From an uncultured virus (IMG/VR IMGVR_UViG_3300003690_000005) (taxonomy: Duplodnaviria; Heunggongvirae; Uroviricota; Caudoviricetes), in the IMG/VR virus record IMGVR_UViG_3300003690_000005: a stretch of DNA of 64,000 bases. One strand, given 5' to 3'. This document shows, one piece after another, positions 11,296 through 47,222 of this stretch. The notes under the pieces were generated by a model, which did not search any database, had not been told where the DNA came from, and was given only the letters and a program-made list of their open reading frames with translations. The translations under genes and the position numbers were made by a program. Each line of letters opens with the position of its first letter. Within the stretch, counting starts at the first letter, position 1.

Positions 11296-11357
11296 TTACT
11301 CCAGCCTTTTATTATTTCAACAATAAAGTGGCAATAACGCCACGAAAGACACACACA

Positions 11358-19032: not shown

Positions 19033-19067
19033 CGACGACAGATCAGTTTAAAGATTGGTAATTAAAA

Positions 19068-25907: not shown

Positions 25908-25934
25908 TTGCCTTTTTAATAAGATCCTCCAAAC

Positions 25935-25972
25935 GGGAGGTACAGGGGCTAAAAATCCTGTGCCTCCTTTTT
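25935..25972 (+). terminator. Rho-independent terminator
   Basis: GGAGGTACAGG...CCTGTGCCTCC-TTTTT. Confidence 0.7.
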
Positions 25973-25986
25973 AAAAGATGTAGGAC

Positions 25987-27797: not shown

Positions 27798-28349
27798 ATG
27801 ATGCTTAAAAAAGTGGGAAGTTGGATTTCTACTAGCACAGCTATAGCGGCTGCTTTAGCTGTTCTTGCTTTTATAGGGAAAGAGGCATGGTTCATGCACG
27901 CAGATGTTGCTACAATGAAAAGTGTTATCACTGAAGAAAAAATCACTGAATGGAAAACAAGTATTGCAACAGTAAAAACTCTTGTTGAAAGAATGGACAA
28001 AGAAAACGATGCGCAGTGGATACTTTTAAGAAACATTGATGGAAAAATTGAAGAGATTGCGATTCCTGTAGAAGTGATGGAGAAATTAAATACTAATCTT
28101 ATTTTGCCATTTATAGTCAACAGTGCAAGCAAAGATCCAGCTTATTCTATGTATTCCATGTCACCTATGTTAGAAAACATGGAAGCGACAGAAAAAACAG
28201 AAGGAGCAAATGGCAACGGAGAGGCAATCAAAGAACTAAAGGAAACCGTGAATACGGCAAAAGAAGTAATCAGGCGTCCTAGAGTCAAAAAGCCAGTACA
28301 AGAATTTAAAGAAGCATATCTACAACAGCAAGAGCAAATCAAGAAATGA
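27798..28349 (+). CDS. Membrane-anchored coiled-coil protein heading the MNWY operon
   Basis: N-terminal TM; AAAGG-N32-ATG upstream; ATGA overlap with the next gene. Confidence 0.7.
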   Translation: MMLKKVGSWISTSTAIAAALAVLAFIGKEAWFMHADVATMKSVITEEKITEWKTSIATVKTLVERMDKENDAQWILLRNIDGKIEEIAIPVEVMEKLNTNLILPFIVNSASKDPAYSMYSMSPMLENMEATEKTEGANGNGEAIKELKETVNTAKEVIRRPRVKKPVQEFKEAYLQQQEQIKK

Positions 28350-30835
28350 ACTGGTATAAACATTCACTTATTCTGTATCCTCCAGAAAAAATACTAACTG
28401 CTAATAATGTATTTAGCATTGGCAGTTGGTACAAGAAGATTGTATTAGCTGCAATGCAGGCTGAGATAGAAGCCGATGGAATGTTTACAATTTCTGGTTA
28501 CACAGGTCATATCTATCAACAACTGAAGCAGTTTGGTTTTAGAGGATACATGGAAGAAGATCCAACAACAGGCAAGAAGTCCTATAAGTGGAAAAGAGAT
28601 GCTGAAAGTCTTAGAAATGATAGTGACACGTTGCAAGTTCTCCAGCAATTGAGCATACCTAATGTAAATATACTAATGGGTCCACAAGCAGCACCTGTTC
28701 AACAAACTCCAGTTCAACAGCCAATTGGTAGTCCTTGGATTCTTGCTACATTTTTACAGGGCGGTGAGCCTGTGGTTGCTCAGCCTAGTCAAGGTGGTTG
28801 GATGCTACAAGATCGTGATGGACAACAAACACCTACACCGGCAGGATCAATACAAACGGTTGTTCAAAGAGTAACAGATGAACAAGGAAATCCGATTCAG
28901 TCAACGAACCCTGCTGACTTGTTTGCAACATATGATCAGATGCAAACACCTGCTCAAAAAGAAGAGGTTAAAAAAGTAAAGTCAGGTCAAAGACCTAAAC
29001 CAGAAGATGTACGATTTCCTGATGAACATTTAACTCCTTATAATAGAGCGATACGAGATAAATTCTTACAAATAGATGCATCGGGTAATTCACCAGATGT
29101 AATGATTAATGCCCTAGCGGGCACAGGCAAAACCAGTGCCCTAAAAGATTTATCTTCTTTTATTAAACCAGGCGAGAAATGGTTATATCTTGTATTTAAT
29201 AAAAAGAATCAACTAGAAGCTAGTTCTGAATTCCCAGAAGGCGTAGATGTAGCCACTACTCATTCATATCTTGGCTCAGTATTAAAGAATGCTGGTCCAG
29301 ACGTAGGAGGATCAACCAAACTACCTTCTATGACTGACAAGGGCCAAAAAATATATCGCATATTAGATCAGATGCTTCCCAGAGACACAGGAAGGGGGCG
29401 CAATCGTACTTATAATACAATATATCAGCAATTTAGATGGAAAGCTGTTTCTAGAATTAAAAACATCGCTGAGCTTGGCAAAGCATTTGCTGTTGATCCA
29501 AATATACCAGATGCAATACAACAACTTGCAGACATAGTACAAAAATATAACATGGATATGGATATATCTACCGAAAAGGATGGGCAAGACAGAGATTACA
29601 CTCCAGACATGTTAGAGCACGCCAAAGAACTTTTATCATATTCGTTGCCTGATAGTTTGCCCCAAGAATACGACAGGAAAGATGCTAATTTAAGAGACCA
29701 AGATGATACGCTATGGTATGCTGCTATACATTCTGACCAGATTGCTTGGAACAACAATCCTCATTATGACGTTGTGCTGATGGACGAGGTACAAGATTTT
29801 AATCAAGCTCAATTAATTATGGCACAAAAACTACAAGAAGCAGGAGCCAGAATAGTAGCAGTAGGCGACCCCAATCAAGCTATTTATGGTTGGAGAGGAG
29901 CAGACTCTAATGCTTTTGGAAAACTACAAAACATTGTTACAGACGGTGAAGAAGATCCTGCTATGTCTTTGCCTATCAACTTCAGAAGTTTACCTACAAT
30001 TATAGATTTTGTAAAAGAAAATACTCATGTAAAAGATCTTGAGGCTGCACCTCCTGAGTTTTGGGCATCACAAAACATTGATCCAAATTCAGGGCGAGTA
30101 GATATAGAAGTAGATAGTAATGATTTTATGGGTCAAATGCAACAAGAATATACAACTGGAGATAGACATCTGCAACAAGAAACAGCTATTATTTCCAGAA
30201 CCAACGCTCCACTAGTAGAACACGCTTTATCGTTGTTAAGAAACGATATTGATTTCCAGATTTTAGGAAGAGACCTATCAAAAGAACTCACAGACCATAT
30301 TAAAAAAGTAACTTATTTCAGACCTGAAATGAAAAGTATTGCAGATTTAGGGTATGATTTAAATAATTATGTTAATAATCTGCAAGAAGAATGGAGTGGT
30401 AAAGTTAGCAAACAAGATGAATTAAAAGACATAGAAGGGACAACAGAAGCTTTGATGGCGGTATTAGGTCATGTTTCAGAGCCAGGCTTTGAACAAAGAC
30501 CAGACGGCAAAAGAATGAACAATGCCCGTGATTTCTTATCTTACATTGAAGACAAATTACGTGGGCAAGATCCAGACAACGCATCAGACTATGCGAAACT
30601 TAAATCTCAAAAAGAAGCAGATCCAACGGCGATGGTGACACTAACAACTGCCCATAAATCAAAAGGTATGGAATACGAGAGAGTTTTTGTATTAGAGCCT
30701 GGGGCTTTTAATCCTGAAGGTGCTCAAATCAGAACTGAAGCAGAAGCACAACAAGAACGCAACGCTTGGTATGTAAGTCTCACAAGAGCACAAAAACATT
30801 TAATTATTGGGACAGATAAGAAGGAAGAAAGTTGA
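28346..30835 (+). CDS. MNWY-leader UvrD/Rep-like SF1 helicase
   Basis: ALAGTGKT, DEVQD, VGDPNQAIYGWRGA, TAHKSKGMEY, YVSLTRA. Confidence 0.9.
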   Translation: MNWYKHSLILYPPEKILTANNVFSIGSWYKKIVLAAMQAEIEADGMFTISGYTGHIYQQLKQFGFRGYMEEDPTTGKKSYKWKRDAESLRNDSDTLQVLQQLSIPNVNILMGPQAAPVQQTPVQQPIGSPWILATFLQGGEPVVAQPSQGGWMLQDRDGQQTPTPAGSIQTVVQRVTDEQGNPIQSTNPADLFATYDQMQTPAQKEEVKKVKSGQRPKPEDVRFPDEHLTPYNRAIRDKFLQIDASGNSPDVMINALAGTGKTSALKDLSSFIKPGEKWLYLVFNKKNQLEASSEFPEGVDVATTHSYLGSVLKNAGPDVGGSTKLPSMTDKGQKIYRILDQMLPRDTGRGRNRTYNTIYQQFRWKAVSRIKNIAELGKAFAVDPNIPDAIQQLADIVQKYNMDMDISTEKDGQDRDYTPDMLEHAKELLSYSLPDSLPQEYDRKDANLRDQDDTLWYAAIHSDQIAWNNNPHYDVVLMDEVQDFNQAQLIMAQKLQEAGARIVAVGDPNQAIYGWRGADSNAFGKLQNIVTDGEEDPAMSLPINFRSLPTIIDFVKENTHVKDLEAAPPEFWASQNIDPNSGRVDIEVDSNDFMGQMQQEYTTGDRHLQQETAIISRTNAPLVEHALSLLRNDIDFQILGRDLSKELTDHIKKVTYFRPEMKSIADLGYDLNNYVNNLQEEWSGKVSKQDELKDIEGTTEALMAVLGHVSEPGFEQRPDGKRMNNARDFLSYIEDKLRGQDPDNASDYAKLKSQKEADPTAMVTLTTAHKSKGMEYERVFVLEPGAFNPEGAQIRTEAEAQQERNAWYVSLTRAQKHLIIGTDKKEES

Positions 30836-31323
30836 ACTGGTACAAACGAGCAGCATTGCCTACAGACTGGGAAAAGGATGCGTTATATCATGTTTTTATG
30901 ATGATAACTACTAAGTATCCTCAAGCTGCTGACTTGTCTTCTGCAACAACTTCTGGTGTTTTTTATGTTATAAAAAACGAATATTTCAAAGAATTTGCAA
31001 AACATTGGCGTCAACGGGAAAATCTTAATTTACCTATAGATATATTTATATTTTATAACAGCGAAACATATATAAATATAGTGAGAAAGAGAGATAAAGA
31101 CAATTCTGTATGGTTGCAAGGGCATGTTCGCAAACAGGGTGACGAAGATAGCATAAGAAGTATACTATCTAATGATCCTTATGATTATGTAACTCAAATG
31201 GAACAAGCTATCGTTGATTTAAGCAAAGGAGATGATAGTGGAGGTTCTAAAACAAGACCAGAACAACCATATTCACCCAGTGGAATAAAAATTCCACAAG
31301 AAGAAGAGTTAATTGCAGTTTAA
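30832..31323 (+). CDS. MNWY-leader hypothetical protein
   Basis: TTG start in a TTGA overlap; paralog of 31462..31935. Confidence 0.75.
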   Translation: MNWYKRAALPTDWEKDALYHVFMMITTKYPQAADLSSATTSGVFYVIKNEYFKEFAKHWRQRENLNLPIDIFIFYNSETYINIVRKRDKDNSVWLQGHVRKQGDEDSIRSILSNDPYDYVTQMEQAIVDLSKGDDSGGSKTRPEQPYSPSGIKIPQEEELIAV

Positions 31324-31461
31324 ACATATCTCCAGAAAAATTTATTCTTTTTTAATTTGCGTATGACTGAACAACCAGATAATACAGAAATACCTGATTC
31401 TCCTAGTGGAATTGAGGAAGAAGAATTAGTTTCTGTTTAAACATAAAAGAGGAGACCCACT

Positions 31462-31935
31462 TTGCCGGAACAAAAACAAGAACTAAAACAAGACGCTACT
31501 TATCATCTGTTTATGGTCATGTCTCTGCGATATGACAAAATACGTGATCTTTTAGCAGGTGCTGAAATCCGACGTAATACATTTTATATTTCCGAAGACC
31601 ACAACATAGAAGAATTAATGAAAGAAAGACAAGCAGGAAACCCATATCCCATATGCATCTTTTACAATTTGCAAAGATATACAGTTAGAATACAAGACAG
31701 AGAGGATATATGGCGAGTTATAATAGATACCCCATTTGCCCAGATGAGTATAGAATCAAAAAAAACCATAAAGCCTTATGATTTTATTAAGATTCTTGAA
31801 AATATAATTATTAAATATATTGACCCAAATGACCCAGACGACGATGATGATGATAGTAACAATGATCCAGAACAACCATATTCTCCAAGTGGAATAAAAA
31901 TTCCACGGGAAAAAGAAGAATTAGTTTCTGTTTAA
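31462..31935 (+). CDS. Paralog of 30832..31323 lacking the MNWY leader
   Basis: Shares DA.YH.FM and PEQPYSPSGIKIP..EEL..V; strong AGGAG SD. Confidence 0.7.
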   Translation: MPEQKQELKQDATYHLFMVMSLRYDKIRDLLAGAEIRRNTFYISEDHNIEELMKERQAGNPYPICIFYNLQRYTVRIQDREDIWRVIIDTPFAQMSIESKKTIKPYDFIKILENIIIKYIDPNDPDDDDDDSNNDPEQPYSPSGIKIPREKEELVSV

Positions 31936-32288
31936 TATGGCTCAGGTGGACCAAATTCATCAGGTGCTAAGTCGCTTAATTTATTAAGAGCCACCTTTTC
32001 TACATATAAATAAACATCACTTTCGTCTTGAGCGTCTAACTCGCTAAACATATCAGTACTATTTCCTTCGGAGGTTTTAGGATACATATTTACTATCTCT
32101 ACGTCACTTGATTGGTCCGTAGGATACCTTGGATCATAAAGAGAAGGTCTGTATTCTATATCTGCGGTGATATTGACTCTTCTGCCGCTAGATAATTGAA
32201 CACCAACTCCTGTTTCTATTTCCATATCTCTAACAGTTTGAGTAGACTGTGCGATTTTTATATATCCAATAGTTGCTATTTTTTTCAT
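31932..32288 (-). CDS. Hypothetical protein with a KIAQ motif (start MKKIAT)
   Basis: GAGG-N32-ATG upstream on the minus strand. Confidence 0.6.
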   Translation of the reverse strand: MKKIATIGYIKIAQSTQTVRDMEIETGVGVQLSSGRRVNITADIEYRPSLYDPRYPTDQSSDVEIVNMYPKTSEGNSTDMFSELDAQDESDVYLYVEKVALNKLSDLAPDEFGPPEPY

Positions 32289-32396
32289 ATCTTCAATATA
32301 GTGGATTTTGGTCACTAAATCCTCTTTTTATGAAAGATTTATCGATTTTTTTATTGAACAGAATAAACATACAGAAATTGTTCTGGAGTATCCGTA

Positions 32397-32936
32397 TTGA
32401 ATTGGTACAATTTGCTCAAATTCGCAGATAAACGTAATCTCTTACTCCAACAAGGATACAAGGAAAAGATTGTTAATTGGGCTGTGAAACACAAATTTGC
32501 AGAAGTAGATGAAGAAAATTTAGGGATGATGCGAAATTTCAACGGACTATCTGTTAATGTGGAAAATCCCGCAGGGACAGAAAGAGTAGGCGTCAATGAC
32601 AAAGGAGAAGAATGGCGAACTAAAATGGAATATGATTACGGGTTCATATCTTCTGCAAAAGGCGAAGGTGGTGAAGGACTAGATGTATATTTGGGTCCAG
32701 ACGAAGAATCTAAAAAAGTTTATGTCGTCCATCAAAACGACCCTGAAAGTGGTGAATATGATGAAGACAAAGTAATGTTAGGTTTTGCCAGTAAAGACCA
32801 AGCAAAAAGAATTTATTTAAACCACTATGATTCAGATGATTATTTTGGTTCAATTACAACAATAGATTTCTCAGAATTTGAAGATATTGTCAATAGCCCT
32901 GGTGAAGGCAAAGTAACATGGAAGAAAAATAAGTGA
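32397..32936 (+). CDS. MNWY-leader inorganic pyrophosphatase-like protein (polyvalent-protein InPase type)
   Basis: VENPAGTERVG..DYGFI..G.GGEGLDVYLGP..YDEDKVMLGF. Confidence 0.8.
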   Translation: MNWYNLLKFADKRNLLLQQGYKEKIVNWAVKHKFAEVDEENLGMMRNFNGLSVNVENPAGTERVGVNDKGEEWRTKMEYDYGFISSAKGEGGEGLDVYLGPDEESKKVYVVHQNDPESGEYDEDKVMLGFASKDQAKRIYLNHYDSDDYFGSITTIDFSEFEDIVNSPGEGKVTWKKNK

Positions 32937-33448
32937 ACTGGTATAAAAGAGCAGAAAAATCGCTATACCACGGCACAATAAATGACCATGCGGACTCTAT
33001 CCGTCAGTTTGGACTTGAGCCTGCTTTAGGAAATTTTGTTTCTGATGCATATGGTGGAGATTATGATGATGCAGGAGTCTCTTTTGAAGACAATGTTGCA
33101 GAATTAACATATGCTACTGACAAAGAGAATCTTGGTAAAGCAGTAACGGCTATGACACACCATATTGCTAAAAAATTAAATAAAGATTTTCATAAAGTAA
33201 CAGATATCGACATTAGAAACCATGGCATGATTGTAAAAGTAAAAGGATCACCAGGAGCAGCAGTTCCACCCGAACCTTTTGAACAAAGACCAGAAGATTA
33301 TGATTTAGATTGGGATATGATGTCAGCAGAAAGAAACTTATATGCAGTTGAACCCTTAGACTATTATTCAGAAGAAGAGACAGCACCTGAAGATATTGAA
33401 CTAATAACAGGATCTGCTTTAATGCGTTTTTTAGGACATAACTCTTGA
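32933..33448 (+). CDS. MNWY-leader ADP-ribosyltransferase-like protein
   Basis: LYHGT...SIRQFGL.P. Confidence 0.55.
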   Translation: MNWYKRAEKSLYHGTINDHADSIRQFGLEPALGNFVSDAYGGDYDDAGVSFEDNVAELTYATDKENLGKAVTAMTHHIAKKLNKDFHKVTDIDIRNHGMIVKVKGSPGAAVPPEPFEQRPEDYDLDWDMMSAERNLYAVEPLDYYSEEETAPEDIELITGSALMRFLGHNS

Positions 33449-33945
33449 ACTGGTATAGTTTATTAAAATTCGCTGGCATTAAATTATTACACGGGACATC
33501 TTCTAGTTTCAATCAATTTGATTTATCGTTTGCTGGACAACGAGACTGGGGAGATTATGGCGTAGGGGTATACTTAACTCCGAGTGATTATATGGCTAAA
33601 GAATACGCAGCGGAGGCGGTAAAATCTCGTGGAGGAAAGCCAGTTGTGTATTTAGTTGAAGCAAATGTGTCCAGTTTAGCAAACATGGATGATCCAGGCT
33701 TGTTGTCTGATGTATCTAAGAACACAGATGCACCATTTCCTAAAAAGTTAGAAACTGGACAAAAACAAAGTCGCCCTGAACAGGAAAGTAGAAATATAAC
33801 AGAGTTTTTAATACAATTGGGGTATGATGGAGCAAGACATGGAAAGGAATATATAATTTTTGATCCCGCGAAAATTAATATACTAAAATCGTTTGATTTA
33901 ACTAGCAACATAAATGATGTCCCATCTTGGCTTAGCGAAGTTTAA
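33445..33945 (+). CDS. MNWY-leader ADP-ribosyltransferase (ART-PolyVal-like)
   Basis: LHGTS..FNQFD..GVGVYLT...A.EYA..GYDG..EYIIFDP. Confidence 0.75.
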   Translation: MNWYSLLKFAGIKLLHGTSSSFNQFDLSFAGQRDWGDYGVGVYLTPSDYMAKEYAAEAVKSRGGKPVVYLVEANVSSLANMDDPGLLSDVSKNTDAPFPKKLETGQKQSRPEQESRNITEFLIQLGYDGARHGKEYIIFDPAKINILKSFDLTSNINDVPSWLSEV

Positions 33946-33946
33946 T

Positions 33947-34744
33947 ATGAACTGGTATAAAAGAGCACAACAACAGTATCTTCCTTTTTATAATCCTGCC
34001 ACAGATATACCCATGGAGAACCGGAACGCTTATGAACAAAATTTGTTGCAAAACAGGGCAAAAGCATTACAAGAACTAACCATAGAAGAATTTATTGAAG
34101 ATCATGTTAATAATGAAGCAGAATTATATCAATATTTTGAAGAACTAGGGCTAGACTTGCACAAAATAGATGGTTTTCCAAATGCCAGACCAGTTTATAT
34201 CTTTGAGGGTAGAGATGGAAATACATATGTTATAGATGAATTTCCTGAATCTCCTGATATTGTTGAAGCTCGTGGATGGGTTGACAGGATCGACGAGATG
34301 TATTTAGGAGACTATGTAGAAGCACTAGATTCGAATGAAGATTTTTGGCGAGGAGTGGGAGCAGGATATAAACTTTATCATGGAACAAACGAAGAAAACC
34401 TTGAAGAAATTCAACAAAATGGGTTAGAAGCAAGAAATGTAACCAGAGGAATGAGTAATCGTGGGACTGGTGCATCCGTATTTACTTCACCAGATCCTGG
34501 TACAGCAGAATATTCATATGATACAGTTATTGAAATAGACGTAGGGCAAATGAAAGCAGATGGTTATATGCCTCAAGCTGGAGGCGAGGAGCCTTTAGAA
34601 GAATCTGATTTGAGGTCTTCGTTAGCATATAAATTAGGGTTAGAAGATTATTACAGCGAAGGCGATAGCAGTGATGGATTAGCCTCTGACACAGTAATAT
34701 TTTATGGAGGCATCCCTTCTAAATATTTAAGAGTATTAGAATGA
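33947..34744 (+). CDS. MNWY-leader ART-like protein
   Basis: Start revised to MNWYKRAQ; LYHGT..IQQNGL..VFTS..IPSKYL. Confidence 0.6.
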   Translation: MNWYKRAQQQYLPFYNPATDIPMENRNAYEQNLLQNRAKALQELTIEEFIEDHVNNEAELYQYFEELGLDLHKIDGFPNARPVYIFEGRDGNTYVIDEFPESPDIVEARGWVDRIDEMYLGDYVEALDSNEDFWRGVGAGYKLYHGTNEENLEEIQQNGLEARNVTRGMSNRGTGASVFTSPDPGTAEYSYDTVIEIDVGQMKADGYMPQAGGEEPLEESDLRSSLAYKLGLEDYYSEGDSSDGLASDTVIFYGGIPSKYLRVLE

Positions 34745-35208
34745 ACTGGTACAAAAGAGCAGAAGATGAAGACTATATGTATCCTGATAAGGGTCACGAC
34801 TATGACCCTAATTGGGATTATCATATATGGCAAGAACATGAGATAGAAGACAAGGAAGTTATACGTTTTGTTAATATGATGATTGAGCAGTGGAATAATA
34901 AACTATTTCCGCAATTAAAGCTTTTTCGTACAGTAACGGTGCATTTTGGCAACTTGCCAGCAGAACAAGTGGCAACATATGCTAACGGAACGGTATCAGA
35001 ACCAGTTGTTATAGTTGACATAGATAATATAAAAATGATTTGTAAAGAAATGGGAGATGAGAGATACTGTTTAACGCATGTGGGAATTTCTATTTTACAT
35101 GAAATTGGACACGCTATACAAGAAGCCCACGGAAAAGAATTTGAAGAAGATAGTGCAGAAGAGTTTGGGAGAGAATACTTTGACCACGGCAGGATTATAA
35201 TGCCATGA
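34741..35208 (+). CDS. MNWY-leader zincin metallopeptidase
   Basis: ILHEIGH..EEDSAEEF. Confidence 0.7.
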   Translation: MNWYKRAEDEDYMYPDKGHDYDPNWDYHIWQEHEIEDKEVIRFVNMMIEQWNNKLFPQLKLFRTVTVHFGNLPAEQVATYANGTVSEPVVIVDIDNIKMICKEMGDERYCLTHVGISILHEIGHAIQEAHGKEFEEDSAEEFGREYFDHGRIIMP

Positions 35209-35993
35209 ACTGGTATAAAATATCACAATCTGCTATTACTATCTCTATTGATCTCTGGCAAAAATCAATACGAGAATATCTGTCACAATTAGTTGATTTT
35301 TCTATGAGCAAACCAGATGATGGTTTTAGATATACCCAAGAAGCGGCAGATCAAAATTTACAAGAATTTTCCAAACAAACTTATTCAAATATGCAGAAAA
35401 TAGTGAACATAATACAAGAGGCTATCTCAAAACTTCCTGATTGGAGTGAAAGTCCTATCGTTGTAGAAGCAAGAACTTATGATAAGGATAACGACATTGG
35501 AGCAGAAACTGATGCAGAGGTTCATGTCGGTAAAGCATCAGCATGGGGAGGGACAGCAAGCTTTACTCTGTTCACAGGAGATCGTAGAATTATGATAGAT
35601 GATGTGCTTGAAGGGGGAGATACAGATTTCTTTAGTAGTGATTCTACACAATCTGATTATTTTTTACTTGTGCAAGAATTAAGAGACCCAGGCTCTTCAT
35701 CACAAAAAAGCAAAATATTAACTTTATACACTGCAAGACCTGTACAAGACAGACAACTTTTCGAAGGAGCTAATGCTATTCCTTCAAATATATTTTTAAC
35801 AACTGACCCAAGTAGAGCTACAGGCATAGCTTCTGATATGGGGCAGAGAGATGTATGGCAAGTTAAAATAGATGAGCGTAATCTTGTTAACACGTTAGAT
35901 TCACCAGGCGTAAAAGATTATCAAGCAATTGGCAAGGGTTCTCAAGTTCCTATAGATTCTATTATATTGTGGAGCGAAAGTGAATTGGTATAA
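35205..35993 (+). CDS. MNWY-leader protein, possible C-terminal ART-like domain
   Basis: TLYTAR...IFLTTD..RA. Confidence 0.6.
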   Translation: MNWYKISQSAITISIDLWQKSIREYLSQLVDFSMSKPDDGFRYTQEAADQNLQEFSKQTYSNMQKIVNIIQEAISKLPDWSESPIVVEARTYDKDNDIGAETDAEVHVGKASAWGGTASFTLFTGDRRIMIDDVLEGGDTDFFSSDSTQSDYFLLVQELRDPGSSSQKSKILTLYTARPVQDRQLFEGANAIPSNIFLTTDPSRATGIASDMGQRDVWQVKIDERNLVNTLDSPGVKDYQAIGKGSQVPIDSIILWSESELV

Positions 35994-38526: not shown

Positions 38527-38848
38527 AAAATCACAACAAAGACTTTATGGGTATAAAGTTGTTGGACTTAAAGACGAGAAGGCTTTTTCTTTGTACGATA
38601 AAAGCGAGATTGGATTGTCCAAAGGAACTGTATATTCTTTTGGAGGAAAAGGTGGATTTCTAGGAACAACAAAAAAATTTGCAATAGATCATTATTCAGG
38701 ATTGACAGACGAAGAAGAATTACTTCTCGTATATGAGTTCCAGCCAGAAGATATTGTTTCTGGCCGCACCGACGAAGAGGGAGAAGTAAGTGTCAGGCGA
38801 GCAAAACTCATCAACATAGAACAAACAAATATGAACTGGCAAACATGA
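38513..38848 (+). CDS. MNWY-leader hypothetical protein
   Basis: MNWYKKSQ. Confidence 0.75.
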   Translation: MNWYKKSQQRLYGYKVVGLKDEKAFSLYDKSEIGLSKGTVYSFGGKGGFLGTTKKFAIDHYSGLTDEEELLLVYEFQPEDIVSGRTDEEGEVSVRRAKLINIEQTNMNWQT

Positions 38849-39663
38849 ACTGGTATAAGAAATCAGCAACTAATTTAAATGAACTCAAGAAGCAATTAGA
38901 TGATCTTCTTGAAGAATATAGTGCTTTAAATATGTTGATTATCCGTGAAGTTGCAACTCCTGAACAAATTCAAAAAGAAAAAGAAGTTGAGCAACAAGCA
39001 AACTATATTGAGAAATTATATAAAGCAGAATATGAAAGGTTAAAGCCAAGAGCAATGCAAGCTATAGAAGAGGGGAGACCACATGAAGTTCCTCAACAAC
39101 ATTTTATAGATTACCACAAAACAGGAAGAATACCAGATGATGCCTACAAAGGATATGAAACTACAGAGGGCATATCGTGGTTAGGAACTAAAGAAAAGTA
39201 TCCTATCTTTCTAAAAAAACAAAAATTTGGAGATGAAGAAATCGAGTTCAGGCAGTCAGACAAAAAAACATTTTACACCAAAACAGATGAAAACAAGGAC
39301 ATAGTGAGAGACAATGAAGGAAATGTTACATATCTATCTCCTGAAGAAATAAAAGCAAAAGGTTTACCAGAAACAGATACATCTATTGTAGTTTTCAATG
39401 AAGCAGGACAACCTATAGGATTGGCTTCAAATGAATTTGGCACAGATGGAGTGTGGGTTGTAAAAGAATATCAAGGAAAAGGTATTGGCACAGATCTATT
39501 ATATGAATTTAGAAAACAATTTCCGTCTAAAAGAAAAATAGGACAAATGACTTCTTCAGGCATAGATATAACAAAAGCGTATCATAAAAGACTTATACAA
39601 GAAGCTTTAAAAAACAAACAACATGTTCCCCAAGAGGTGTTAGACGATTATGAGTTGGTATAA
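38845..39663 (+). CDS. MNWY-leader GNAT acetyltransferase-like protein
   Basis: VWVVKEYQGKGIGTDL (acetyl-CoA motif A). Confidence 0.7.
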   Translation: MNWYKKSATNLNELKKQLDDLLEEYSALNMLIIREVATPEQIQKEKEVEQQANYIEKLYKAEYERLKPRAMQAIEEGRPHEVPQQHFIDYHKTGRIPDDAYKGYETTEGISWLGTKEKYPIFLKKQKFGDEEIEFRQSDKKTFYTKTDENKDIVRDNEGNVTYLSPEEIKAKGLPETDTSIVVFNEAGQPIGLASNEFGTDGVWVVKEYQGKGIGTDLLYEFRKQFPSKRKIGQMTSSGIDITKAYHKRLIQEALKNKQHVPQEVLDDYELV

Positions 39664-40141
39664 GAAAACAGAAATTGAATACCGAAATATGCCGTCTACA
39701 GAGGACTTCGATGACGAGGATAGTGATATTGATGTTTATCAAGCAATGGATGAAGCGGAAAAAGTCTTTCAAAACTCAGGGATTCGTCCTGATAGTAGGA
39801 AAGAAATGACTAATATTGCTTTATCAGACGGAACAGTTATTGGGGCTATTGCGAGTAACTGGTCAGAAGCAACAGATTATGATTTTCCAGTAATGGAGTT
39901 TTCTTTTGATGTAGCAGTAGATAAAAAGTTTAGAGGCTCTGAACAAGTAGGGATGAAGCTAATACAAGAAGCAATTAATACATATGAGGAAGAGAAAACA
40001 ATGTACGAAGAGTCTGATTATAAAACACGTATAAAACTATGGGTAATCAATACTGGGCTAATTCCCATATTGGAAAAATTCTTTGGATTTGAAATAGAGT
40101 CTGATCTGGGACATGGACAGGCACACATGGTAAGGTATTAA
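39650..40141 (+). CDS. MSWY-leader GNAT-like protein
   Basis: DVAVDKKFRG..VGMKLI..FFGF. Confidence 0.65.
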   Translation: MSWYKKTEIEYRNMPSTEDFDDEDSDIDVYQAMDEAEKVFQNSGIRPDSRKEMTNIALSDGTVIGAIASNWSEATDYDFPVMEFSFDVAVDKKFRGSEQVGMKLIQEAINTYEEEKTMYEESDYKTRIKLWVINTGLIPILEKFFGFEIESDLGHGQAHMVRY

Positions 40142-40145
40142 TGAC

Positions 40146-40538
40146 ATGAACTGGTATAAAACAGCACGACAGGATTACGAAATACAAAAGCAAATCCAGT
40201 TGTTGAGAGATAGTCTTAAATCTCAGCATCCAGGACTGGAACTTGATTTATGGTATGCTCACAATCATTATATTGAGCTTGCAAGAATAGAGCTACCTCC
40301 TGAAATGCAGAATCAGGGCTTTGGACACCAAATTATTAAAGATATACAAGAATTTGCTAGACAATTGAACGTGCCAATTGTTTTGCGGCCAGAAGCAGAA
40401 AAAAGAAAAAAGACATCACTAAATAGATTTTATAGAGATTTAGATTTTGTTCCTAATAAAGGCAGAAGTGCAGACCCGACGTTATCTTCGCCGTTTGCAT
40501 CTACTATGTATTGGAAACCTGAAAATGAATTGGTATAA
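40146..40538 (+). CDS. MNWY-leader GNAT-like protein
   Basis: IELPPEMQNQGFGHQII..RFYRDLDF. Confidence 0.7.
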   Translation: MNWYKTARQDYEIQKQIQLLRDSLKSQHPGLELDLWYAHNHYIELARIELPPEMQNQGFGHQIIKDIQEFARQLNVPIVLRPEAEKRKKTSLNRFYRDLDFVPNKGRSADPTLSSPFASTMYWKPENELV

Positions 40539-40902
40539 GAAAAGCCAGAATATAGGTGACAAGATCCAATTTATGTGGACAGGTCGTCCTCGTCAAGGAC
40601 AAGTTACTCAATTGTTGCCAGATGGAAGTGTTGAGGTCGCTACATCTATAGATGAGCCTGATATGCTTGGAAGAAGATTAAGACTTCAAAGAAGTCAGAT
40701 TGTTGACCCGCAAGACTCACAAAATCCACAGGGTTCTATTGAAACGGGAAGTAAAATCGAATTTGACTGGGGAGGACCAACACAAGCAACGGTTCAGCAA
40801 ATTCTTCCAAATAACATACTATCAGTCCAAATCGAATCTGATAATCCTATGTTCCGTAAAGTAATAACTATACCAATGGATCAAGTAAGGCTAGTGGTGT
40901 GA
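40525..40902 (+). CDS. MNWY-leader protein with two SH3/Tudor-like repeats
   Basis: GDKIQFMW.G..Q.Q and GSKIEFDWGG..Q internal repeat; start revised. Confidence 0.65.
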   Translation: MNWYKKSQNIGDKIQFMWTGRPRQGQVTQLLPDGSVEVATSIDEPDMLGRRLRLQRSQIVDPQDSQNPQGSIETGSKIEFDWGGPTQATVQQILPNNILSVQIESDNPMFRKVITIPMDQVRLVV

Positions 40903-41126
40903 ATTGGTATAAAACGGCAAACAAAACAGACAAAATAAAACGTTGGATTAAACAAAATACAGATGATGGAATAGAAGTATGGACAAAAGGTAATAATGTC
41001 TTTTTATCTATAGACGATGGAGCAGAAAGAGATTTAGTTGAAGAATTAGAACATATATTAGGTCAAGACATTGAGTGGGACTATGAGGTGGGGAATCCAG
41101 GAACTGGTTGGGTGAAAGTTTTATGA
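40899..41126 (+). CDS. MNWY-leader small protein
   Basis: GTG start in a GTGA overlap. Confidence 0.7.
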   Translation: MNWYKTANKTDKIKRWIKQNTDDGIEVWTKGNNVFLSIDDGAERDLVEELEHILGQDIEWDYEVGNPGTGWVKVL

Positions 41127-41881
41127 ACTGGTATAAAAAAGCAAACTATGAAGAACTAGATCAGATTTTACACCAAGCAGATTTAAGCCTAAACGAAGAA
41201 TCACAAAGAGCAGTATCAAGTTTTGTGGGACATCCACCACAATCTAAACAAGAACGAAATGATCTTGGCGACGATCCATTTCAACTCTTTGGTATTATGG
41301 ACTCACGGCAACTTGAAGATGCTTTTTCTACTGAAACAACAGAACAGGGTGCAAATGTGCTACAGGATCTTGAACAAAATATGCAACCTGTAAAAGAATA
41401 TCTTTATAGATTATTTGGCGACACTGTTCCTTTACATCGTTATCAGCACCCTTTGTCGGGAAACGAGGAGCCACGAAACATTTTATCTTGGACGCTGAAT
41501 CGTAATTTTGTTGAAGCACATGCTGGTATACGTCCTACGATAAAGGTTTTAAACGACGCAGATATTGAAAAATATGTTCAACAATTTGAAATGAATGGCA
41601 GTGTGCAAGTTGGAAATCATATTTATAGAACAGACACAGAACTCGAAGGCACCGACATGTTTGATTTAGACGGAGAACACATAACAGGCATAGGAGGAGG
41701 ATCAAATGAATTAAGAAAATGGTTGCACGGTCAAAAAGACGACGATTCTCGTTGGAACGATCAGATCGAGAACAAAAACAACGAAAAAAGACAAAACATT
41801 ATATCTCAAAACATACAGATTAAAGACATCGTATGGGCTACAAACAGGGCAGGACAGTGGGAGTTTGTTATAAAAACATAA
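41123..41881 (+). CDS. MNWY-leader protein, possible R-S-E ART-like
   Basis: LHRY...LSWT...QWEF; start revised. Confidence 0.6.
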   Translation: MNWYKKANYEELDQILHQADLSLNEESQRAVSSFVGHPPQSKQERNDLGDDPFQLFGIMDSRQLEDAFSTETTEQGANVLQDLEQNMQPVKEYLYRLFGDTVPLHRYQHPLSGNEEPRNILSWTLNRNFVEAHAGIRPTIKVLNDADIEKYVQQFEMNGSVQVGNHIYRTDTELEGTDMFDLDGEHITGIGGGSNELRKWLHGQKDDDSRWNDQIENKNNEKRQNIISQNIQIKDIVWATNRAGQWEFVIKT

Positions 41882-41900
41882 CGACCACTGTGGATAAAAA

Positions 41901-42962
41901 ATGAACTGGTATAATAGATTAAAATTTGCACAAATATGGAACATTGAAAGCGATGGTGGTTTTCTCGATGAAGTGCAAAAACTATATGAATTAGAATATA
42001 AACGTTCTATGATTAAACAAAATCCTTTCAAAGGCGTAGATAAACGCAAAGAAAACATTCTTGCTAACATAGAAAAAGGTGTTTTAGAGGCAATTGATGT
42101 TGTAAGGGAACCATTGGCCCAAACATTACAACAATGGCTTAAAAGTCACGCTTTAACAGACCCTGACCAGTGGGCAAAACAACGAAACAAACCGGGTTCT
42201 CCTTTTGACAATTGGGATGAATATTATGAGAGCACTAGCGAAGGACCAATAAGTCGTATAATAAGAGTTGTGGATGAATATAATGATTTAACTGAAAAAA
42301 ACTCAATAGGCAGTGCTGCGTCGTTAGCCACACCAAACTGGGATAGAAGTTTTGTACAAATGATGCAAGAAAACGGAAGTTATCATTTTCCCAGCATGAA
42401 AAATATAACTAATACGCTTATTCCTGATAGACAGGAAATGTTAATTCAAGAACTGCAAAGTGAAGGTTTAGAAGAATTTAATAGAACGATGGGAACACAG
42501 TTTGCTACTGAAGAAGAAGCAGAAGAATACATATACCAAGCAACAGCAGAACAATTAGGCATTGATGCTTCAGACCTGTTTGATTATTATGATCTTGAAG
42601 GATTAGCTGAACTGGCAGATCAAAATGGATTATTAGATAATCTTATTTTCGATATAAATAAAAATATTGTATTTCCAGCTTGGTATGGCAAATGGTCTAA
42701 CGAAGGAATAGATGACACCAGAGAAGCAGTAGAACAAATATACCAAGAACTCATGTCTGCCAAAACCATTGATCAAATAATTTCAGCAGTGAATTTGGCG
42801 CTTAACGCGGCTCATCAAACAGGAGATATGATAGATTATTTAGAAGACTATGGTAACGTAGAAGGTAGCTATGGAACAAAACAGTTTTTAGATAATTTGT
42901 CTGCTGGTGAATATGTTGAAAAATGGAATGAAGAACTAAGAGCGATTGGAGTTGAGATATGA
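41901..42962 (+). CDS. MNWY-leader hypothetical protein
   Basis: MNWYNRLKFAQI. Confidence 0.8.
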   Translation: MNWYNRLKFAQIWNIESDGGFLDEVQKLYELEYKRSMIKQNPFKGVDKRKENILANIEKGVLEAIDVVREPLAQTLQQWLKSHALTDPDQWAKQRNKPGSPFDNWDEYYESTSEGPISRIIRVVDEYNDLTEKNSIGSAASLATPNWDRSFVQMMQENGSYHFPSMKNITNTLIPDRQEMLIQELQSEGLEEFNRTMGTQFATEEEAEEYIYQATAEQLGIDASDLFDYYDLEGLAELADQNGLLDNLIFDINKNIVFPAWYGKWSNEGIDDTREAVEQIYQELMSAKTIDQIISAVNLALNAAHQTGDMIDYLEDYGNVEGSYGTKQFLDNLSAGEYVEKWNEELRAIGVEI

Positions 42963-43609
42963 ACTGGTACAATAGATTGAAATTTGCACAGATTTCTGGC
43001 GAATACTGGATCGATGATATTGGCAATGCTATTTTTATAGATGGAGATGTAGGAGATTATAACCATGAAAGTTATGTTATGGAACAAGTAAGGTATAAGG
43101 TTGCAGATTTAGCACACGAAAAAGGTCTAACAGAAAATAATCATTCTAATGATGATTTCATTGATTGGGATATGTTTTTACAAGAAATAAAGAGAGGTAC
43201 TAAGGATAGCGTATATAACACGTTGCTAAAATCAGGTTTAAAGGCAGAACAATTAGATGTTGCATTTGAGCAAAGAGATGCAAGAGCATATGCAGTAGAA
43301 CACTGGGGATGGAAAAGATTAGAAGGAACTAATGTAGAAACTGGGACTTTAACTCCAAACGACATGGATACAATTGCCAGTGGATTATATAATGCGTATG
43401 ACGAAGACGCGACGAACCAAACCTACACTATTTATGTTTATTCTACAAACCAAACTTTAGACATGACATACGAGCAATTAGACAATAAAGAAATGGCAGA
43501 AACAGGAGGACTAGCTCAAACTCAGCAAAAAGCATACGATAAAGCTGTAACAGAATTAGAACGAAAAGATCAACCATCGTTTTATCAGAATAAACCCGAG
43601 GGAGATTGA
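42959..43609 (+). CDS. MNWY-leader hypothetical protein
   Basis: Same 12-aa leader MNWYNRLKFAQI, then an unrelated body. Confidence 0.8.
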   Translation: MNWYNRLKFAQISGEYWIDDIGNAIFIDGDVGDYNHESYVMEQVRYKVADLAHEKGLTENNHSNDDFIDWDMFLQEIKRGTKDSVYNTLLKSGLKAEQLDVAFEQRDARAYAVEHWGWKRLEGTNVETGTLTPNDMDTIASGLYNAYDEDATNQTYTIYVYSTNQTLDMTYEQLDNKEMAETGGLAQTQQKAYDKAVTELERKDQPSFYQNKPEGD

Positions 43610-43629
43610 TTTTAAAACGTTATGTTTGA

Positions 43630-43870
43630 TATCCAAATCTCTTAAATGTTTCTGCTTCCCAAATAACTATTTTTTGTTTCGATTTATCGTTTAGTTCAAA
43701 TTGATCTGGTTTAGTGGAATTATAGAAGTATAGACAAAAGGCAATAATGTCTTCTTATTTATAGGTGATTGGGCAGAAGGCGATTTACTTGAAGAATTAG
43801 AACATACATTGGGTCAAGATATTGAGTGGGACCGTGAGGTAGGAAATCCAGGAACTGGCTAGGTAAAGAT
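43630..43870. pseudogene. Composite scar: a sulfotransferase 3' fragment (minus) joined to a decayed copy of 40899..41126
   Basis: About 43630-43722 matches 46692-46783; about 43723-43868 matches 40973-41118, with stops. Confidence 0.75.
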
Positions 43871-43873
43871 ATA

Positions 43874-44107
43874 ATGAAAATTATATATTCTAATACATTA
43901 CGACAGTGGGCTAGTAAAGTTAATTCTACATGTTTTGCTTTACAAGGTTTGGGATATACATTAGAGTCTATGTCTTGGGATGATATATATAACGCTCTTG
44001 ATGGGAATAACCTTGTTCCAGATAATGTAAATCCTGAAAGATTTACAACAATGGTTGCTAGTGTTGTTCGTAATCCTAGTCTTTTTCAAGAGGTAGATAT
44101 AGACTGA
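43874..44107 (+). CDS. Hypothetical protein
   Basis: TGATG overlap into the next MNWY gene. Confidence 0.6.
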   Translation: MKIIYSNTLRQWASKVNSTCFALQGLGYTLESMSWDDIYNALDGNNLVPDNVNPERFTTMVASVVRNPSLFQEVDID

Positions 44108-44652
44108 TGAACTGGTATAAGGTATTAAAATGTGCTCAAAGTGAATGGTTCGAGCAACTCCGATCCGAGACAGAAGAAAAAAGTAAAGCCCGAGGTTCTG
44201 TTATCAAGACGGAAAGAAAAACAGAACCTTATACCCTTGAATTGTATCGGGGATTTAATACAGATTTAACAAATCTCGAAAGAGAGGGAGACTCGTATAT
44301 ATTAAGTCCTGAAAACAGCGAGCAAGGAATGATGTGGTTTACTCATCAGTTCATAGGTCACTATAATCCACTTGAATATGCTAAATCACATGGAGATCTG
44401 TTGCTTACTTATCCACTGCAATGTATAAAACATTGGGATGAGATAACTTATGAAAATGGTGACGTGGATCAGCGGTTCCCGGAAGACGTGGACTCTCAAT
44501 CCGATTTTACACAAAACAATAGATTTCACTGCCTATATCGTGCATATTGTTTAGAATTACCTGAAGGATGGTATTGGACATACAAAACAGAGAAATTTAT
44601 AGGAACGACAAATAAAATTACTGTTTCTCCTGATATGGTATCAAAATCATGA
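44107..44652 (+). CDS. MNWY-leader protein, possible ART-like
   Basis: MNWYKVLKCAQ; LYRG...MWFT. Confidence 0.65.
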   Translation: MNWYKVLKCAQSEWFEQLRSETEEKSKARGSVIKTERKTEPYTLELYRGFNTDLTNLEREGDSYILSPENSEQGMMWFTHQFIGHYNPLEYAKSHGDLLLTYPLQCIKHWDEITYENGDVDQRFPEDVDSQSDFTQNNRFHCLYRAYCLELPEGWYWTYKTEKFIGTTNKITVSPDMVSKS

Positions 44653-45152
44653 ACTGGTATAAAAAGATAATAGCAAATACATTAACGATTGACAATGAAT
44701 GGGTTACCAGTAAAAGAACCATACCTATAGAATTAAATCCATCATTAGAAATTACTATGCGACTTGCTAATCAATCAAAATGGGGTCAAGCGAGAATGCT
44801 TCCCACTCCTGATGGCTGGTATGTTTGGCCTGCTGATATGGCTATACATGCTGCTGTCATCGGCGCATTGGGTTTAACTAAAAATATTGTTGATTGGGAT
44901 GCCGATGGACCTGTCGCTAAAATTGATAAAGATAATAATCTTTTAATCTGGCTGCCTCCTGAATCAGGAAACAGTCAAATGTCGTTGCCTTGGGCAAATC
45001 AGCTAGAACCGTATAATGATCCAGAATGGAACTATTATGTTCCAGCGCAAGATGATATGACTATATTAAAATCACAGCCTGTTGCAACCGAAGAGGCATT
45101 TAATATAATTGACAAACCTGCGTCTCCATATTATACAAGATGGGGAGACTAA
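44649..45152 (+). CDS. MNWY-leader hypothetical protein
   Basis: LNPS..GQAR..WYVW..AIH. Confidence 0.75.
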   Translation: MNWYKKIIANTLTIDNEWVTSKRTIPIELNPSLEITMRLANQSKWGQARMLPTPDGWYVWPADMAIHAAVIGALGLTKNIVDWDADGPVAKIDKDNNLLIWLPPESGNSQMSLPWANQLEPYNDPEWNYYVPAQDDMTILKSQPVATEEAFNIIDKPASPYYTRWGD

Positions 45153-45868
45153 TGAACTGGTGGTACAAGCTAGCAGCATCGGAATCAATTCTACAGGAGT
45201 TGTTTTTGCAGGTAACAGATACATATTCTAGACAGGACATTTTACCAGAAGTGCTGGACAGATATAGACAGAAATCAGACGAAGGAGTTAGGGAGCAAAT
45301 CGAATGGCTTAAGCAGGAGAAGACTCGTAACTTGAGATATAGAGAGCAGCAACAGGAATCTGAACAGCGTCAAGAATGGCTTGAAGATGTTCCTCTTGAA
45401 ATACATCAAATTGGTGGAACCAAAGCCACAGATAATTATACGCATTGTATGTCGGGGTCCGTAGAAAAAGTTCAGGGCATCATACAGCAAAGTGGAGGTT
45501 TGCCATTAACCAAGGGGATGGAAAACGTAGGGTATGATAGGTATGATAATACTGCATTGCCAAACTACAACAACATCTTTGTTGGATGCGATGAAACATG
45601 GGCTGCTGTCCTTGCAAGGGATTACGACTATTCTGGAGAGTTCGTATCTATTACATTCGGAGAACTGCCAGAAGATTTTTATGTAATTGACGACCCGAAC
45701 CCAATAGACAAAACAAATTTGCCGGATTCTTACGTTATACTGTCTACACAGTCAGTGATACCTTCGCAGAACATAAAGAGCATAGAAGATAGTGGGACAT
45801 GGGAGGATGCGTTGAGCAGTCGTCCTGATATTGAAAATGAGTTTGGAGATGAGGGTTTCGACGAATGA
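45152..45868 (+). CDS. MNWWY-leader hypothetical protein
   Basis: TAATG overlap; start revised. Confidence 0.7.
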   Translation: MNWWYKLAASESILQELFLQVTDTYSRQDILPEVLDRYRQKSDEGVREQIEWLKQEKTRNLRYREQQQESEQRQEWLEDVPLEIHQIGGTKATDNYTHCMSGSVEKVQGIIQQSGGLPLTKGMENVGYDRYDNTALPNYNNIFVGCDETWAAVLARDYDYSGEFVSITFGELPEDFYVIDDPNPIDKTNLPDSYVILSTQSVIPSQNIKSIEDSGTWEDALSSRPDIENEFGDEGFDE

Positions 45869-46146
45869 ACTGGTATAAACATGCACAATCTGGCTTTGGA
45901 TTTCATGGAACAGATACTGATGCTTTGACTAGTATTAAATCAAGAGGATTAAACATAGGTACGTTCTTTTCTTCCAATGAAGATGATATAAGCTCTTACA
46001 CAAATGGTGCGTGGATTAGGTTTCCTTTTCCAAGAAATTTCACAAAAAGAACAGGAAGAGGCGATTATTATACTACTAATGAAATTGTTCCACCTACCCA
46101 AATAGAATATAAAACTGATCTTTGGGATGATTACCAGCCGATTTAA
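45865..46146 (+). CDS. MNWY-leader minimal ART-like protein
   Basis: FHGT...SIKSRGL..FFS..VPPTQI. Confidence 0.55.
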   Translation: MNWYKHAQSGFGFHGTDTDALTSIKSRGLNIGTFFSSNEDDISSYTNGAWIRFPFPRNFTKRTGRGDYYTTNEIVPPTQIEYKTDLWDDYQPI

Positions 46147-46152
46147 TACTTA

Positions 46153-46683
46153 ATGTTTGTTTCTGAACAACATCAATTTATTTATATTAGTATCCCAAAA
46201 ACTGGCAGCAGATCAATGAGACGCTGGCTGTCGAGAAATTATCAAACAAGAAAAATTCATCAAGTACATGCTTGGAATGTTCCTGAAAAATATAAAAGTT
46301 ATTTCATTTTTACGCTAGTCAGTAACCCGTATGACAGGTGCATAAGTTTATGGAAGATGGAAGGCAGACATATAGATTTTACAACATATATGAAAAATAT
46401 TATATTTTTAAAAGAAAACCCTAACCAATGCAAACAACAGGTTCCTGAACAGTATATGTCGCAAAAACCATATATACAATTATCTAATTGTAGCAAATAT
46501 ATAAAATTAGAATGTTTACAAGAGTTAGAATTGTTGCCTTTTGTTCATTCTATAAATGATTTTCCTCATTTCAATCGCCGTATACATAGAGCAATTCATA
46601 AAAATAATTTAACCCAAGAACAAAAACAAATTATATGGGAATACTGTTTGGAAGATTTTGATTTTTTAGATTATAAGGTCTAA
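46153..46683 (+). CDS. Sulfotransferase family 2-like protein
   Basis: FIYISIPKTGSRS (PAPS 5'-PSB); VSNPYDRCIS; EDFDFLDY. Confidence 0.8.
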   Translation: MFVSEQHQFIYISIPKTGSRSMRRWLSRNYQTRKIHQVHAWNVPEKYKSYFIFTLVSNPYDRCISLWKMEGRHIDFTTYMKNIIFLKENPNQCKQQVPEQYMSQKPYIQLSNCSKYIKLECLQELELLPFVHSINDFPHFNRRIHRAIHKNNLTQEQKQIIWEYCLEDFDFLDYKV

Positions 46684-47222
46684 ATTTTATATCCAAATCT
46701 CTTAAATGTTTCTGCTTCCCAAATAACTATTTTTTGCTTTGACTTATCGTTTAACCTACTTTGATCTGGTTTAGTGGAATTAAGAATAGGCAGTTTGTCT
46801 GGTCCTTTCCAGAACTCTAGTAATTTAATTTCATCATCTATGTGTTCAAGATGTAAAACTTTGTCGTATTTGACTGGTCTCATCCAAATTTGCTGCGATT
46901 GGTATTGCGGAACAACCCTGTCTCTTGCAGTTATCCATGAGACAAATTTATTAATATCTTCATTGCGTTTGGCTCTTATGGATTTGCTTGCCGATCTAAA
47001 TTGAGATTGAGTTCTGCCATAAGGATGTCTGCAAACACCGAATATAAAATAGTTTTTATATTCATCAGGAACAACATTGCAATGATATCCACTATTTTTA
47101 GGTGTTTTCTCACCTCGCTGATAAATTCCTTCATACTCTTCTTTTAAAACTTTATACATTGTGTTTGTGCCAGCTTTTGGTGTAGATATGAATACGAATT
47201 TATATTTATGAGATATAATCAT
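46680..47222 (-). CDS. Sulfotransferase family 2-like protein
   Basis: MIISHKYKFVFISTPKAGTNT; RHPYGR; FKRFGY. Confidence 0.8.
   Translation of the reverse strand: MIISHKYKFVFISTPKAGTNTMYKVLKEEYEGIYQRGEKTPKNSGYHCNVVPDEYKNYFIFGVCRHPYGRTQSQFRSASKSIRAKRNEDINKFVSWITARDRVVPQYQSQQIWMRPVKYDKVLHLEHIDDEIKLLEFWKGPDKLPILNSTKPDQSRLNDKSKQKIVIWEAETFKRFGYKI

Follow-up and report, generated by a model that had tools for sequence, protein, structure and literature searches.

In a 64,000-nucleotide stretch of DNA from an uncultured, marine, giant tailed phage (IMG/VR record IMGVR_UViG_3300003690_000005, Caudoviricetes; the whole stretch is called the window below), a series of unrelated genes begins with almost the same 14 nucleotides. 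What is this repeated start kept for, and do genes enter and leave the array through it? A sequence-only reading had taken the 14-mer as a DNA device: stop codons hidden in its two alternative frames would terminate and translationally couple any gene placed in front of it, which would let cassettes be gained and shuffled by short-homology recombination. We find that gene content does turn over at the repeat. In the reading that we consider probable, the repeat is a selected peptide tag, cassettes are shuffled by in-register exchange from tag to tag, and the stops are a by-product.

An array of unrelated genes with a common start

When up to two mismatches were allowed, the 14-mer was matched 21 times in the window (11 times exactly), always on the plus strand and between 28346 and 47275; 100 shuffles gave a mean of 0.9 matches and a maximum of four. 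A scan at the protein level found 23 tagged starts and two further in-frame copies, at 28421 and 38047. The tag peptide is M-N-W-Y, followed within ten residues by K-x-A/S (present in 21 of the 23 tags), and about 12-20 nt of tag DNA are shared at the start of every tagged gene. The cargo behind the 23 tags is unrelated: all-against-all BLASTP returned a single paralogue pair (30832 and the untagged 31462) and one match limited to the tag. Self-BLAST of the array DNA showed repeats at the tags, a few local duplications and no others. The 14-mer is thus a common sequence, as had been proposed, but it is exact at just 7 of the 16 sites listed at the time. Seven tagged starts were missing from that list (32397, 33947, 40146, 41901, 44107, 45152 and 47262), four of them exact 14-mers whose stops terminate no upstream gene.

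The conserved unit is a peptide, most likely for packaging

The 848-residue protein encoded at 35980 has 145 homologues, 120 of which are listed and underlie the counts given here; its conserved core ends at residue 679. A second tag copy lies C-terminal to the core with no cargo behind it in 24/120 and with at least 45 residues behind it in 16/120. Just two of the 120 have a long tail but no tag, and both also lack the N-terminal tag. C-terminal tag copies were also found on proteins other than the 35980 homologues. Since the tag can stand at either protein end, it is not a translation signal. Moreover, in other phage groups the same core follows different N-terminal peptides, many of which end in Glu. 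On these comparisons, the conserved unit is the peptide and not its DNA.

The tag most likely labels its cargo for loading into the virus head, in the manner of the T4 capsid-targeting sequence (CTS). By analogy with the CTS as presented in passages of PMC9026906 and PMC12373910, it would dock unrelated enzymes into the assembling head, where the head protease would then cut it. A homologue of the 35980 protein, ORF132 of phage RsoM2USA (31% identity over residues 25-262, E 1e-21), has been assigned to a virion band, in an excerpt that words the assignment 'most likely' (PMC8504454); its own tag looks T4-type and differs from the window tag. The head module of two tagged relatives contains a portal gene and a 2000-residue protein with a head-maturation-protease domain, and the major capsid protein, found in one relative, is 50% identical to phage G gp27. 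This head-protease polyprotein is enriched in K-x-A in both relatives (33 against 18.7 and 42 against 20.1 expected; 0/1000 shuffles), as is the phage G head protease gp19 (8 against 2.4). Among the cargos, InPase, ART and GNAT are domains of polyvalent proteins, which are predicted to be packaged (sections of PMC5512222).

That the tag is instead another docking motif, a degradation motif or an N-terminal enhancer of translation, carried by a late operon whose turnover is incidental, seems to us quite unlikely. Such a role would agree with the guarded wording of the ORF132 assignment, and none of the 28 phage G genes checked has an NWY-type motif. C-terminal and internal copies, however, exclude a role in translation start, clade-specific tags substitute for each other on one and the same cargo, and K-x-A is common to the tag and the head-protease polyprotein.

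Cassettes change at the tag

The sequence-only reading had expected gain and loss of cassettes with breakpoints at the repeat, and a comparison across related phages bears this out: gene order and content are not invariant, and several breakpoints lie within tag DNA. The relative L149, about 70% identical to the window in nucleotides, retains gene 27798 and the UvrD gene and has none of the nine ORFs from 30832 through 35205. Its orthologue of 40146 forms an in-frame fusion with its 35980 orthologue, standing behind the internal tag of the latter. DNA homology between the two phages reaches that tag and ends, with 71% identity over the 75 nt before and 36% after.

Eleven rearrangements, from five pairs of relatives and one within-genome duplication, were resolved by scoring 60 nt on each side; the L019/L022 and L001/L016 differences, without base-level resolution, stand outside this set. 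Homology switches inside the tag DNA cleanly in four of the 11 and partially in two. The first clean event is the window/L149 fusion (z 8.6 upstream; on the cargo side z is just 2.0 for DNA, with 56% protein identity). In the second, L008/L017, two genes are missing (z 9.9 upstream and 3.5 downstream; exact runs of 20 and 17 nt), and in the third, L017/L008, 2.5 kb are missing (z 7.3 and 14.0). The fourth is a cassette duplicated within L017 with both ends at tags (z 10.0 and 10.5), one copy being without ATG. All four clean joins combine the upstream DNA of one partner with the cargo of the other, in register and without remnant. The partial events are an insert in L014 whose start lies in an internal tag and whose end lies at a degenerate tag, and a difference between L005 and L013 in which the other gene's tag is degenerate.

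Internal tags receive new cargo

If exchange involves a tag copy at a protein end, it would fuse new cargo to that protein, and fusion in frame, which had also been anticipated, was repeatedly seen among relatives. The 16 cargos fused behind the core in the listed homologues (window included) contain a single homologous pair. Five of the 15 fused cargos from outside the window match free-standing genes of the array: 40146, 38513, 33947 (twice) and 42959. On a tree of 50 proteins, cargo-bearing forms are scattered among tag-only forms; two of the fusion tails are short enough for read-through.

These comparisons support the view that tag DNA has hosted gene swap, loss and fusion among related phages. 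The novelty lies in a single sequence being both tag and exchange site, and in C-terminal copies through which free cargo genes end up in polyprotein-like fusions. Such fusion is a candidate route to polyvalent proteins.

The hidden stops look like a by-product

The overlaps on which the proposed DNA device was based exist: all 12 NTGA overlaps and all four 14-nt overlaps ending in ELV* were found again where they had been listed. For the 23 tagged starts, the upstream junctions are 12 NTGA overlaps, four TAA stops at offset 11 (the ELV* ends), two 1-nt overlaps and three gaps of 1, 4 and 19 nt, while two starts lack a same-strand upstream gene. Stop and start therefore overlap by 1 or 4 nt at 14/23 starts and by 14 nt at four more.

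The strong form of the proposal, in which the 14-mer is kept as a DNA or RNA device that terminates and couples any incoming gene and so opens the array to cargo, is nevertheless very unlikely in our estimate. It can appeal to the fact that the tag's own stops end the upstream gene at 16 of the 21 window tags with a same-strand upstream gene. Canonical overlaps are also commoner at tags in the relatives (26/52 tagged against 34/166 untagged genes, p=7e-5), as are 4-nt overlaps (19/52 against 24/166, p=0.001), these baselines coming from a crude gene caller that takes the ATG closest to the stop as the start. The ATGA of the next tag terminates a shorter L013 gene and an in-frame tag remnant at 38831, and the Asn codon AAC is in excess in the tags even after correction for context (p=4e-4).

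On the other side, the TGA in the tag is automatic in any ATG-A start: ATGA starts make up 107/189 ordinary starts, and both other frames are stopped within about 14 nt at 43/189. The TAA requires TAT, which is at background (17/22 window tags against 79%, p=0.8), so selection on this stop was rejected as an explanation. The second-frame stop is real at offset 11 in 17/23 starts and missing in six. When tagged genes of the relatives are compared with untagged ATGA starts, the difference in 4-nt overlaps is 19/52 against 26/107 (p=0.13), and 14-nt overlaps amount to 3/52 against 3/166 untagged genes (p=0.15). Half of the relatives' tags (26/52) stand after a spacer, and in one complete genome 15 tag copies are spread over at least six places on both strands. 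Both overlaps also occur at unrelated phage genes that merely have these 14 nt as their start (L038, L093 and L099; L057, L100 and L101). These loci come from a 14-nt pattern search, which mostly returned unrelated phages matching by chance and served as a control only; the pattern fixed AAC and TAT, and three loci of one contig (L063, L064 and L074) slightly bias the pooled codon counts.

A frame-agnostic stop is superfluous for an in-register exchange, which keeps the stop and spacer of the left partner. The phages in which three of the four clean events occurred, L008 and L017, have mostly spaced tags. With the TAA-making codon at background and spacer-bearing relatives shuffling too, the idea that the two hidden stops are a DNA function that enables shuffling is not upheld.

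In the by-product reading, TGA and TAA would derive from the Met-Asn and Tyr-Lys/Asn codons of the peptide in an A+T-rich genome. An upstream gene that loses its stop or spacer would meet the stops of the tag first, giving 4-nt and, less often, 14-nt overlaps; the ratio is 12:4 in the window and 31:7 in a tally of the window, the relatives and one hand-added count. Overlaps mostly arise through 3' elongation of the upstream gene (Fonseca et al. 2013, PMC3887535); the tag's stops do catch upstream genes that have lost their own, as at the 38831 remnant, which is how short overlaps are known to form. Among co-directional overlaps, the 4-nt one is the commonest, often with a Shine-Dalgarno (SD) sequence in the upstream gene, and coupling by termination-reinitiation at ATGA/TGATG overlaps is documented (Huber et al. 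2019, excerpts of PMC6728339). It is plausible by analogy that the tag overlaps give translational coupling: both overlap lengths would probably permit termination-reinitiation, although shuffling would not need it. The window overlaps differ from ordinary ones in recurring in one repeated start, and their 14-nt form gives several proteins an ELV C-terminus; in all other respects the two are alike. ELV as a C-terminal signal was rejected, as it ends 6/63 tagged homologues, the number expected from 14-nt overlaps.

The statement that most tagged starts lack an SD sequence is true of half of them only. Eight of the 16 listed starts (12/23 overall) pair at -5 kcal/mol or below with the anti-SD motif, against SD-like sites at 11.7% of random array positions (8/16, p=2e-4), and lack of an SD was dropped as a general trait of tagged starts.

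Homology or filtered joins?

The products of exchange are visible in the comparisons; the mechanism is what we infer from them. Because the first 12-20 nt of every tagged gene are nearly identical, tag DNA amounts to a short, dispersed repeat. In-register exchange between two copies, rare and guided by homology, would delete, duplicate or replace cassettes from tag to tag, and since its products are automatically functional, selection enriches them.

Several observations weigh against this scheme. The exact shared runs (10-20 nt) are under the pairing minima quoted for Red-beta (23-27 nt) and RecA (31-34 nt; passages of PMC3945230). Five of the 11 rearrangements are not at a tag pair: one has an untagged partner (L003/L026), three alter a spacer or overlap and one breaks within a gene. 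The single deletion seen in near-identical populations is likewise not at a tag: in runs X2 and X3 about 755 nt are missing from 34-39 nt inside gene 45865, the X2 joint skipping 45899-46653 at 5 nt of homology. Two of the 16 fusions have two tandem tags, which fits loss of a stop and not exchange. Finally, with the window pooled in, 4-nt overlaps at tags exceed those at untagged ATGA starts (30/69 against 26/107, p=0.012), so that coupling itself may be favoured. The populations compared are those of four seawater runs, mostly at least 99% identical to the window; array parts without contig cover in X3 and X5 were left unused. No tag-to-tag joint is listed in the contigs of these four runs, contigs being a form of data that loses rare variants. 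One 614-nt contig of X5 leaves the window at 40150, five bases into the 40146 tag, with a loose end absent from the window; seen in a single run, it was not counted.

These points lend weight to survivor bias alone, in which illegitimate recombination strikes anywhere, joins that keep tag and cargo intact survive, and the DNA repeat has no mechanistic role. Gene boundary and tag position coincide in the array, five of the 11 events are not tag-to-tag, nor is the X2/X3 deletion, and the shared runs are below efficient pairing segments. We still regard this explanation as unlikely, given the four in-register joins without remnant and the L017 cassette, duplicated with both ends at tags and with one copy lacking its ATG. 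The short runs imply that exchange should be rare and that selection does much of the work, whereas the remnant-free joins favour a real part for homology.

Codons give mixed evidence for copying between tags. Synonymous identity of tags exceeds expectation within genomes (0.71 against 0.60) and also between genomes (0.67 against 0.57), a resemblance that a general 5' codon bias would give and that suits survivor bias. The Asn codon is the sole codon that behaves as copying predicts, being homogeneous within genomes (0.72 against 0.60) and not between them (0.49 against 0.58). AAC is used in 18/22 window tags against a background of 34%; it is also the codon in 7/13 of the remaining Asn-Trp pairs in the window, which include tag remnants.

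A bolder extension, which we hold as a tentative possibility of low probability, is that tag DNA is a homogenised, recombinase-favoured coding 'att-like' site, through which phage G-like megaphages take up genes of any kind as virion cargo and string them into polyproteins, to be separated again by the head protease at the tag. If true, this would be a direct and general route for assembling and reshuffling polyvalent proteins. As regards an integron-like site-specific system, no integrase was found among the 53 window proteins scanned, and the tag DNA tolerates synonymous changes.

Relation to known systems

In the T-even phages, the CTS and the ip loci likewise combine a short common N-terminal peptide, unrelated proteins and a variable, clustered locus (parts of PMC9026906 and PMC12373910). 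In both the T4 ip locus and the array, gene number, order and identity vary among relatives. The window tag differs from the CTS in sequence and in ending on K-x-A/S instead of Glu, it also occurs C-terminally and internally, and it is carried by 23 genes instead of three; the head genes are phage G-like and not T4-like. Repoila et al. in 1994 reportedly attributed ip shuffling to flanking repeats.

The second counterpart is the PeSL cassettes of T4-type phages, in which whole genes are excised, inserted and replaced under the guidance of a dispersed boundary repeat, with mostly viable products (Arbiol et al. 2010, passages of PMC2839356). PeSL is an intergenic promoter/stem-loop with demonstrated mini-circles, according to the same passages, whereas the window repeat is 12-20 nt of coding DNA and can fuse proteins in frame. 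No PeSL-type intergenic repeat was found in the array, where junctions overlap or leave gaps of at most 19 nt. The array thus resembles a T4 ip locus shuffled in PeSL fashion and is a member of neither family. Elsewhere in the window, some 20 copies of another intergenic repeat, about 40-55 nt long, lie between small genes at 227-11350, many with an SD; this region looks like a PeSL-type promoter cassette array and contains longer duplications (4319-4502/4834-5017 and 9104-9215/10150-10261).

With polyvalent proteins (Iyer et al. 2017, sections of PMC5512222) the array shares the InPase, ART and GNAT repertoire. The same sections predict that these proteins are packaged and split into units by processing, and suggest that their cassettes vary through recombination. 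The window domains are instead mostly free-standing tagged genes, and fusions form at tag copies.

If our reading is true, an incoming gene obtains its address, its cut site and a viable place of recombination in one step from a single coding stretch of 12-20 nt. This would explain the quick turnover of the enzymes that giant phages inject, and also the rise of multidomain 'polyvalent' proteins from free cargo genes. According to passages of PMC3945230, it is an open question whether short-homology recombination or the filtering of random joins underlies phage mosaicism; arrays with at least 20 such repeats turn this into a matter of counting. The hidden stops, by comparison, would be ordinary codon arithmetic.

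Genes of the array

All tagged genes described here are on the plus strand. Most cargo proteins are without family assignment, those assigned being UvrD, InPase, ART-PolyVal-like, weak GNAT and HAD-like; MuF and metallopeptidase domains were not found in the array proteins. The first gene, 28346-30835, has a UvrD-like helicase cargo and an ATGA overlap with 27798-28349, and its double tag (the second copy in frame at 28421) is kept in L149. In several relatives (L149 6380-9967; L002, L018) the UvrD cargo has an in-frame insertion at about residue 512 that is absent from the window, probably an intein. The gene 30832-31323 (TTG start, 4-nt overlap) is a paralogue of the untagged 31462-31935. 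A shared Pro/Glu-rich tail ending E-L-x-x-V closes both ORFs (31258-31323 and 31867-31935), and an orphan piece of it lies between them at 31418-31440.

The InPase gene, 32397-32936 (TTG; PF18823, E 5e-40), has no same-strand gene upstream and is followed, each time with a 4-nt overlap, by 32933-33448 (GTG) and 33445-33945 (TTG), whose cargo is ART-PolyVal-like (PF18760, E 5e-7, at the cut-off). After a 1-nt gap comes 33947-34744, with homologues fused behind an internal tag in proteins P0035 and P0059, and then, with 4-nt overlaps, 34741-35208 and 35205-35993, the latter with its ELV* end within the next tag. That tag opens the 848-residue gene, 35980-38526 (GTG, 14-nt overlap, ELV* end), which comprises core residues 1-679, an internal in-frame tag without Met at 38047-38064, where DNA homology to L149 stops, and the exchangeable C-terminal cargo, which is another one beyond this point in L149.

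Next, 38513-38848 (14-nt overlap) ends in the tag remnant at 38831, 14 nt before the next tag, and has a homologue fused in P0020. Three weak GNAT matches follow: 38845-39663 (4-nt overlap, ELV* end), 39650-40141 (Ser at position 2 of the tag, 14-nt overlap) and 40146-40538 (4-nt gap, ELV* end), the gene fused in L149. The genes 40525-40902 (14-nt overlap), 40899-41126 (75 residues, GTG, 4-nt overlap) and 41123-41881 (4-nt overlap) precede 41901-42962, which stands after a 19-nt gap and has tagged orthologues in four related phages. For the gene 42959-43609 (4-nt overlap), P0040 has a fused homologue after an internal tag.

Downstream of it, a scar at 43625-43878 combines a copy of 46685-46786 (the 3' end of a reverse sulfotransferase-like gene) with a decayed copy of the tagged 75-residue gene (43722-43878), whose right end is on the first five bases common with the next start. 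The remaining tagged genes are 44107-44652 (1-nt overlap with the untagged 43874-44107), 44649-45152 (4-nt overlap), 45152-45868 (a tag variant with two Trp, 1-nt overlap), 45865-46146 (4-nt overlap) and, beyond the range covered by the sequence-only reading, 47262-47672, with a HAD-like phosphatase match and no same-strand upstream gene.

Phages that carry the tag, and other genes of the window

The window stretch was found in one hydrothermal-vent run, possibly its source, and in six seawater runs (share at least 0.2), and the tag occurs on genes of phage contigs of up to 548 kb. Scans of viral contigs with the 35980 and 41901 proteins singly found no relative, the genome collection yielded one truncated locus, and the 41901 protein had no match among cultured phages. 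PF03237 (terminase) had no match in five relatives, and neither had PF03420 (gp21-type protease), for which a control in the same search was also without match. No description of the tag was found in a literature search that left out subscription papers and bioRxiv supplements, nor in the passages of PMC7824862 and PMC12484599.

In phage G itself (L210, 9524-36314), several head-region genes have a basic peptide, R-L-x-K-K/T-x-A/S, at their start that may be a counterpart of the tag. In another locus (L208, G003 5356-9043), tagged genes lie directly 3' of the major capsid gene and alternate with two ORFs that have an identical 10-residue C-terminus. Outside the array, the window has two tandem paralogue pairs (15586-16419/16431-17243 and 17929-20180), the first of which ends in N-W-Y right before the stop, possibly as C-terminal tag copies. 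A lone gene on the reverse strand, 50642-51253, has a tag-like N-W-Y start, with look-alikes in L008 and L017. Finally, 25236-26754 and 52886-56772 encode a PspA/IM30 protein, an ion-channel protein, a G8 beta-helix protein and a hybrid histidine kinase, which are unusual accessory genes for a phage.

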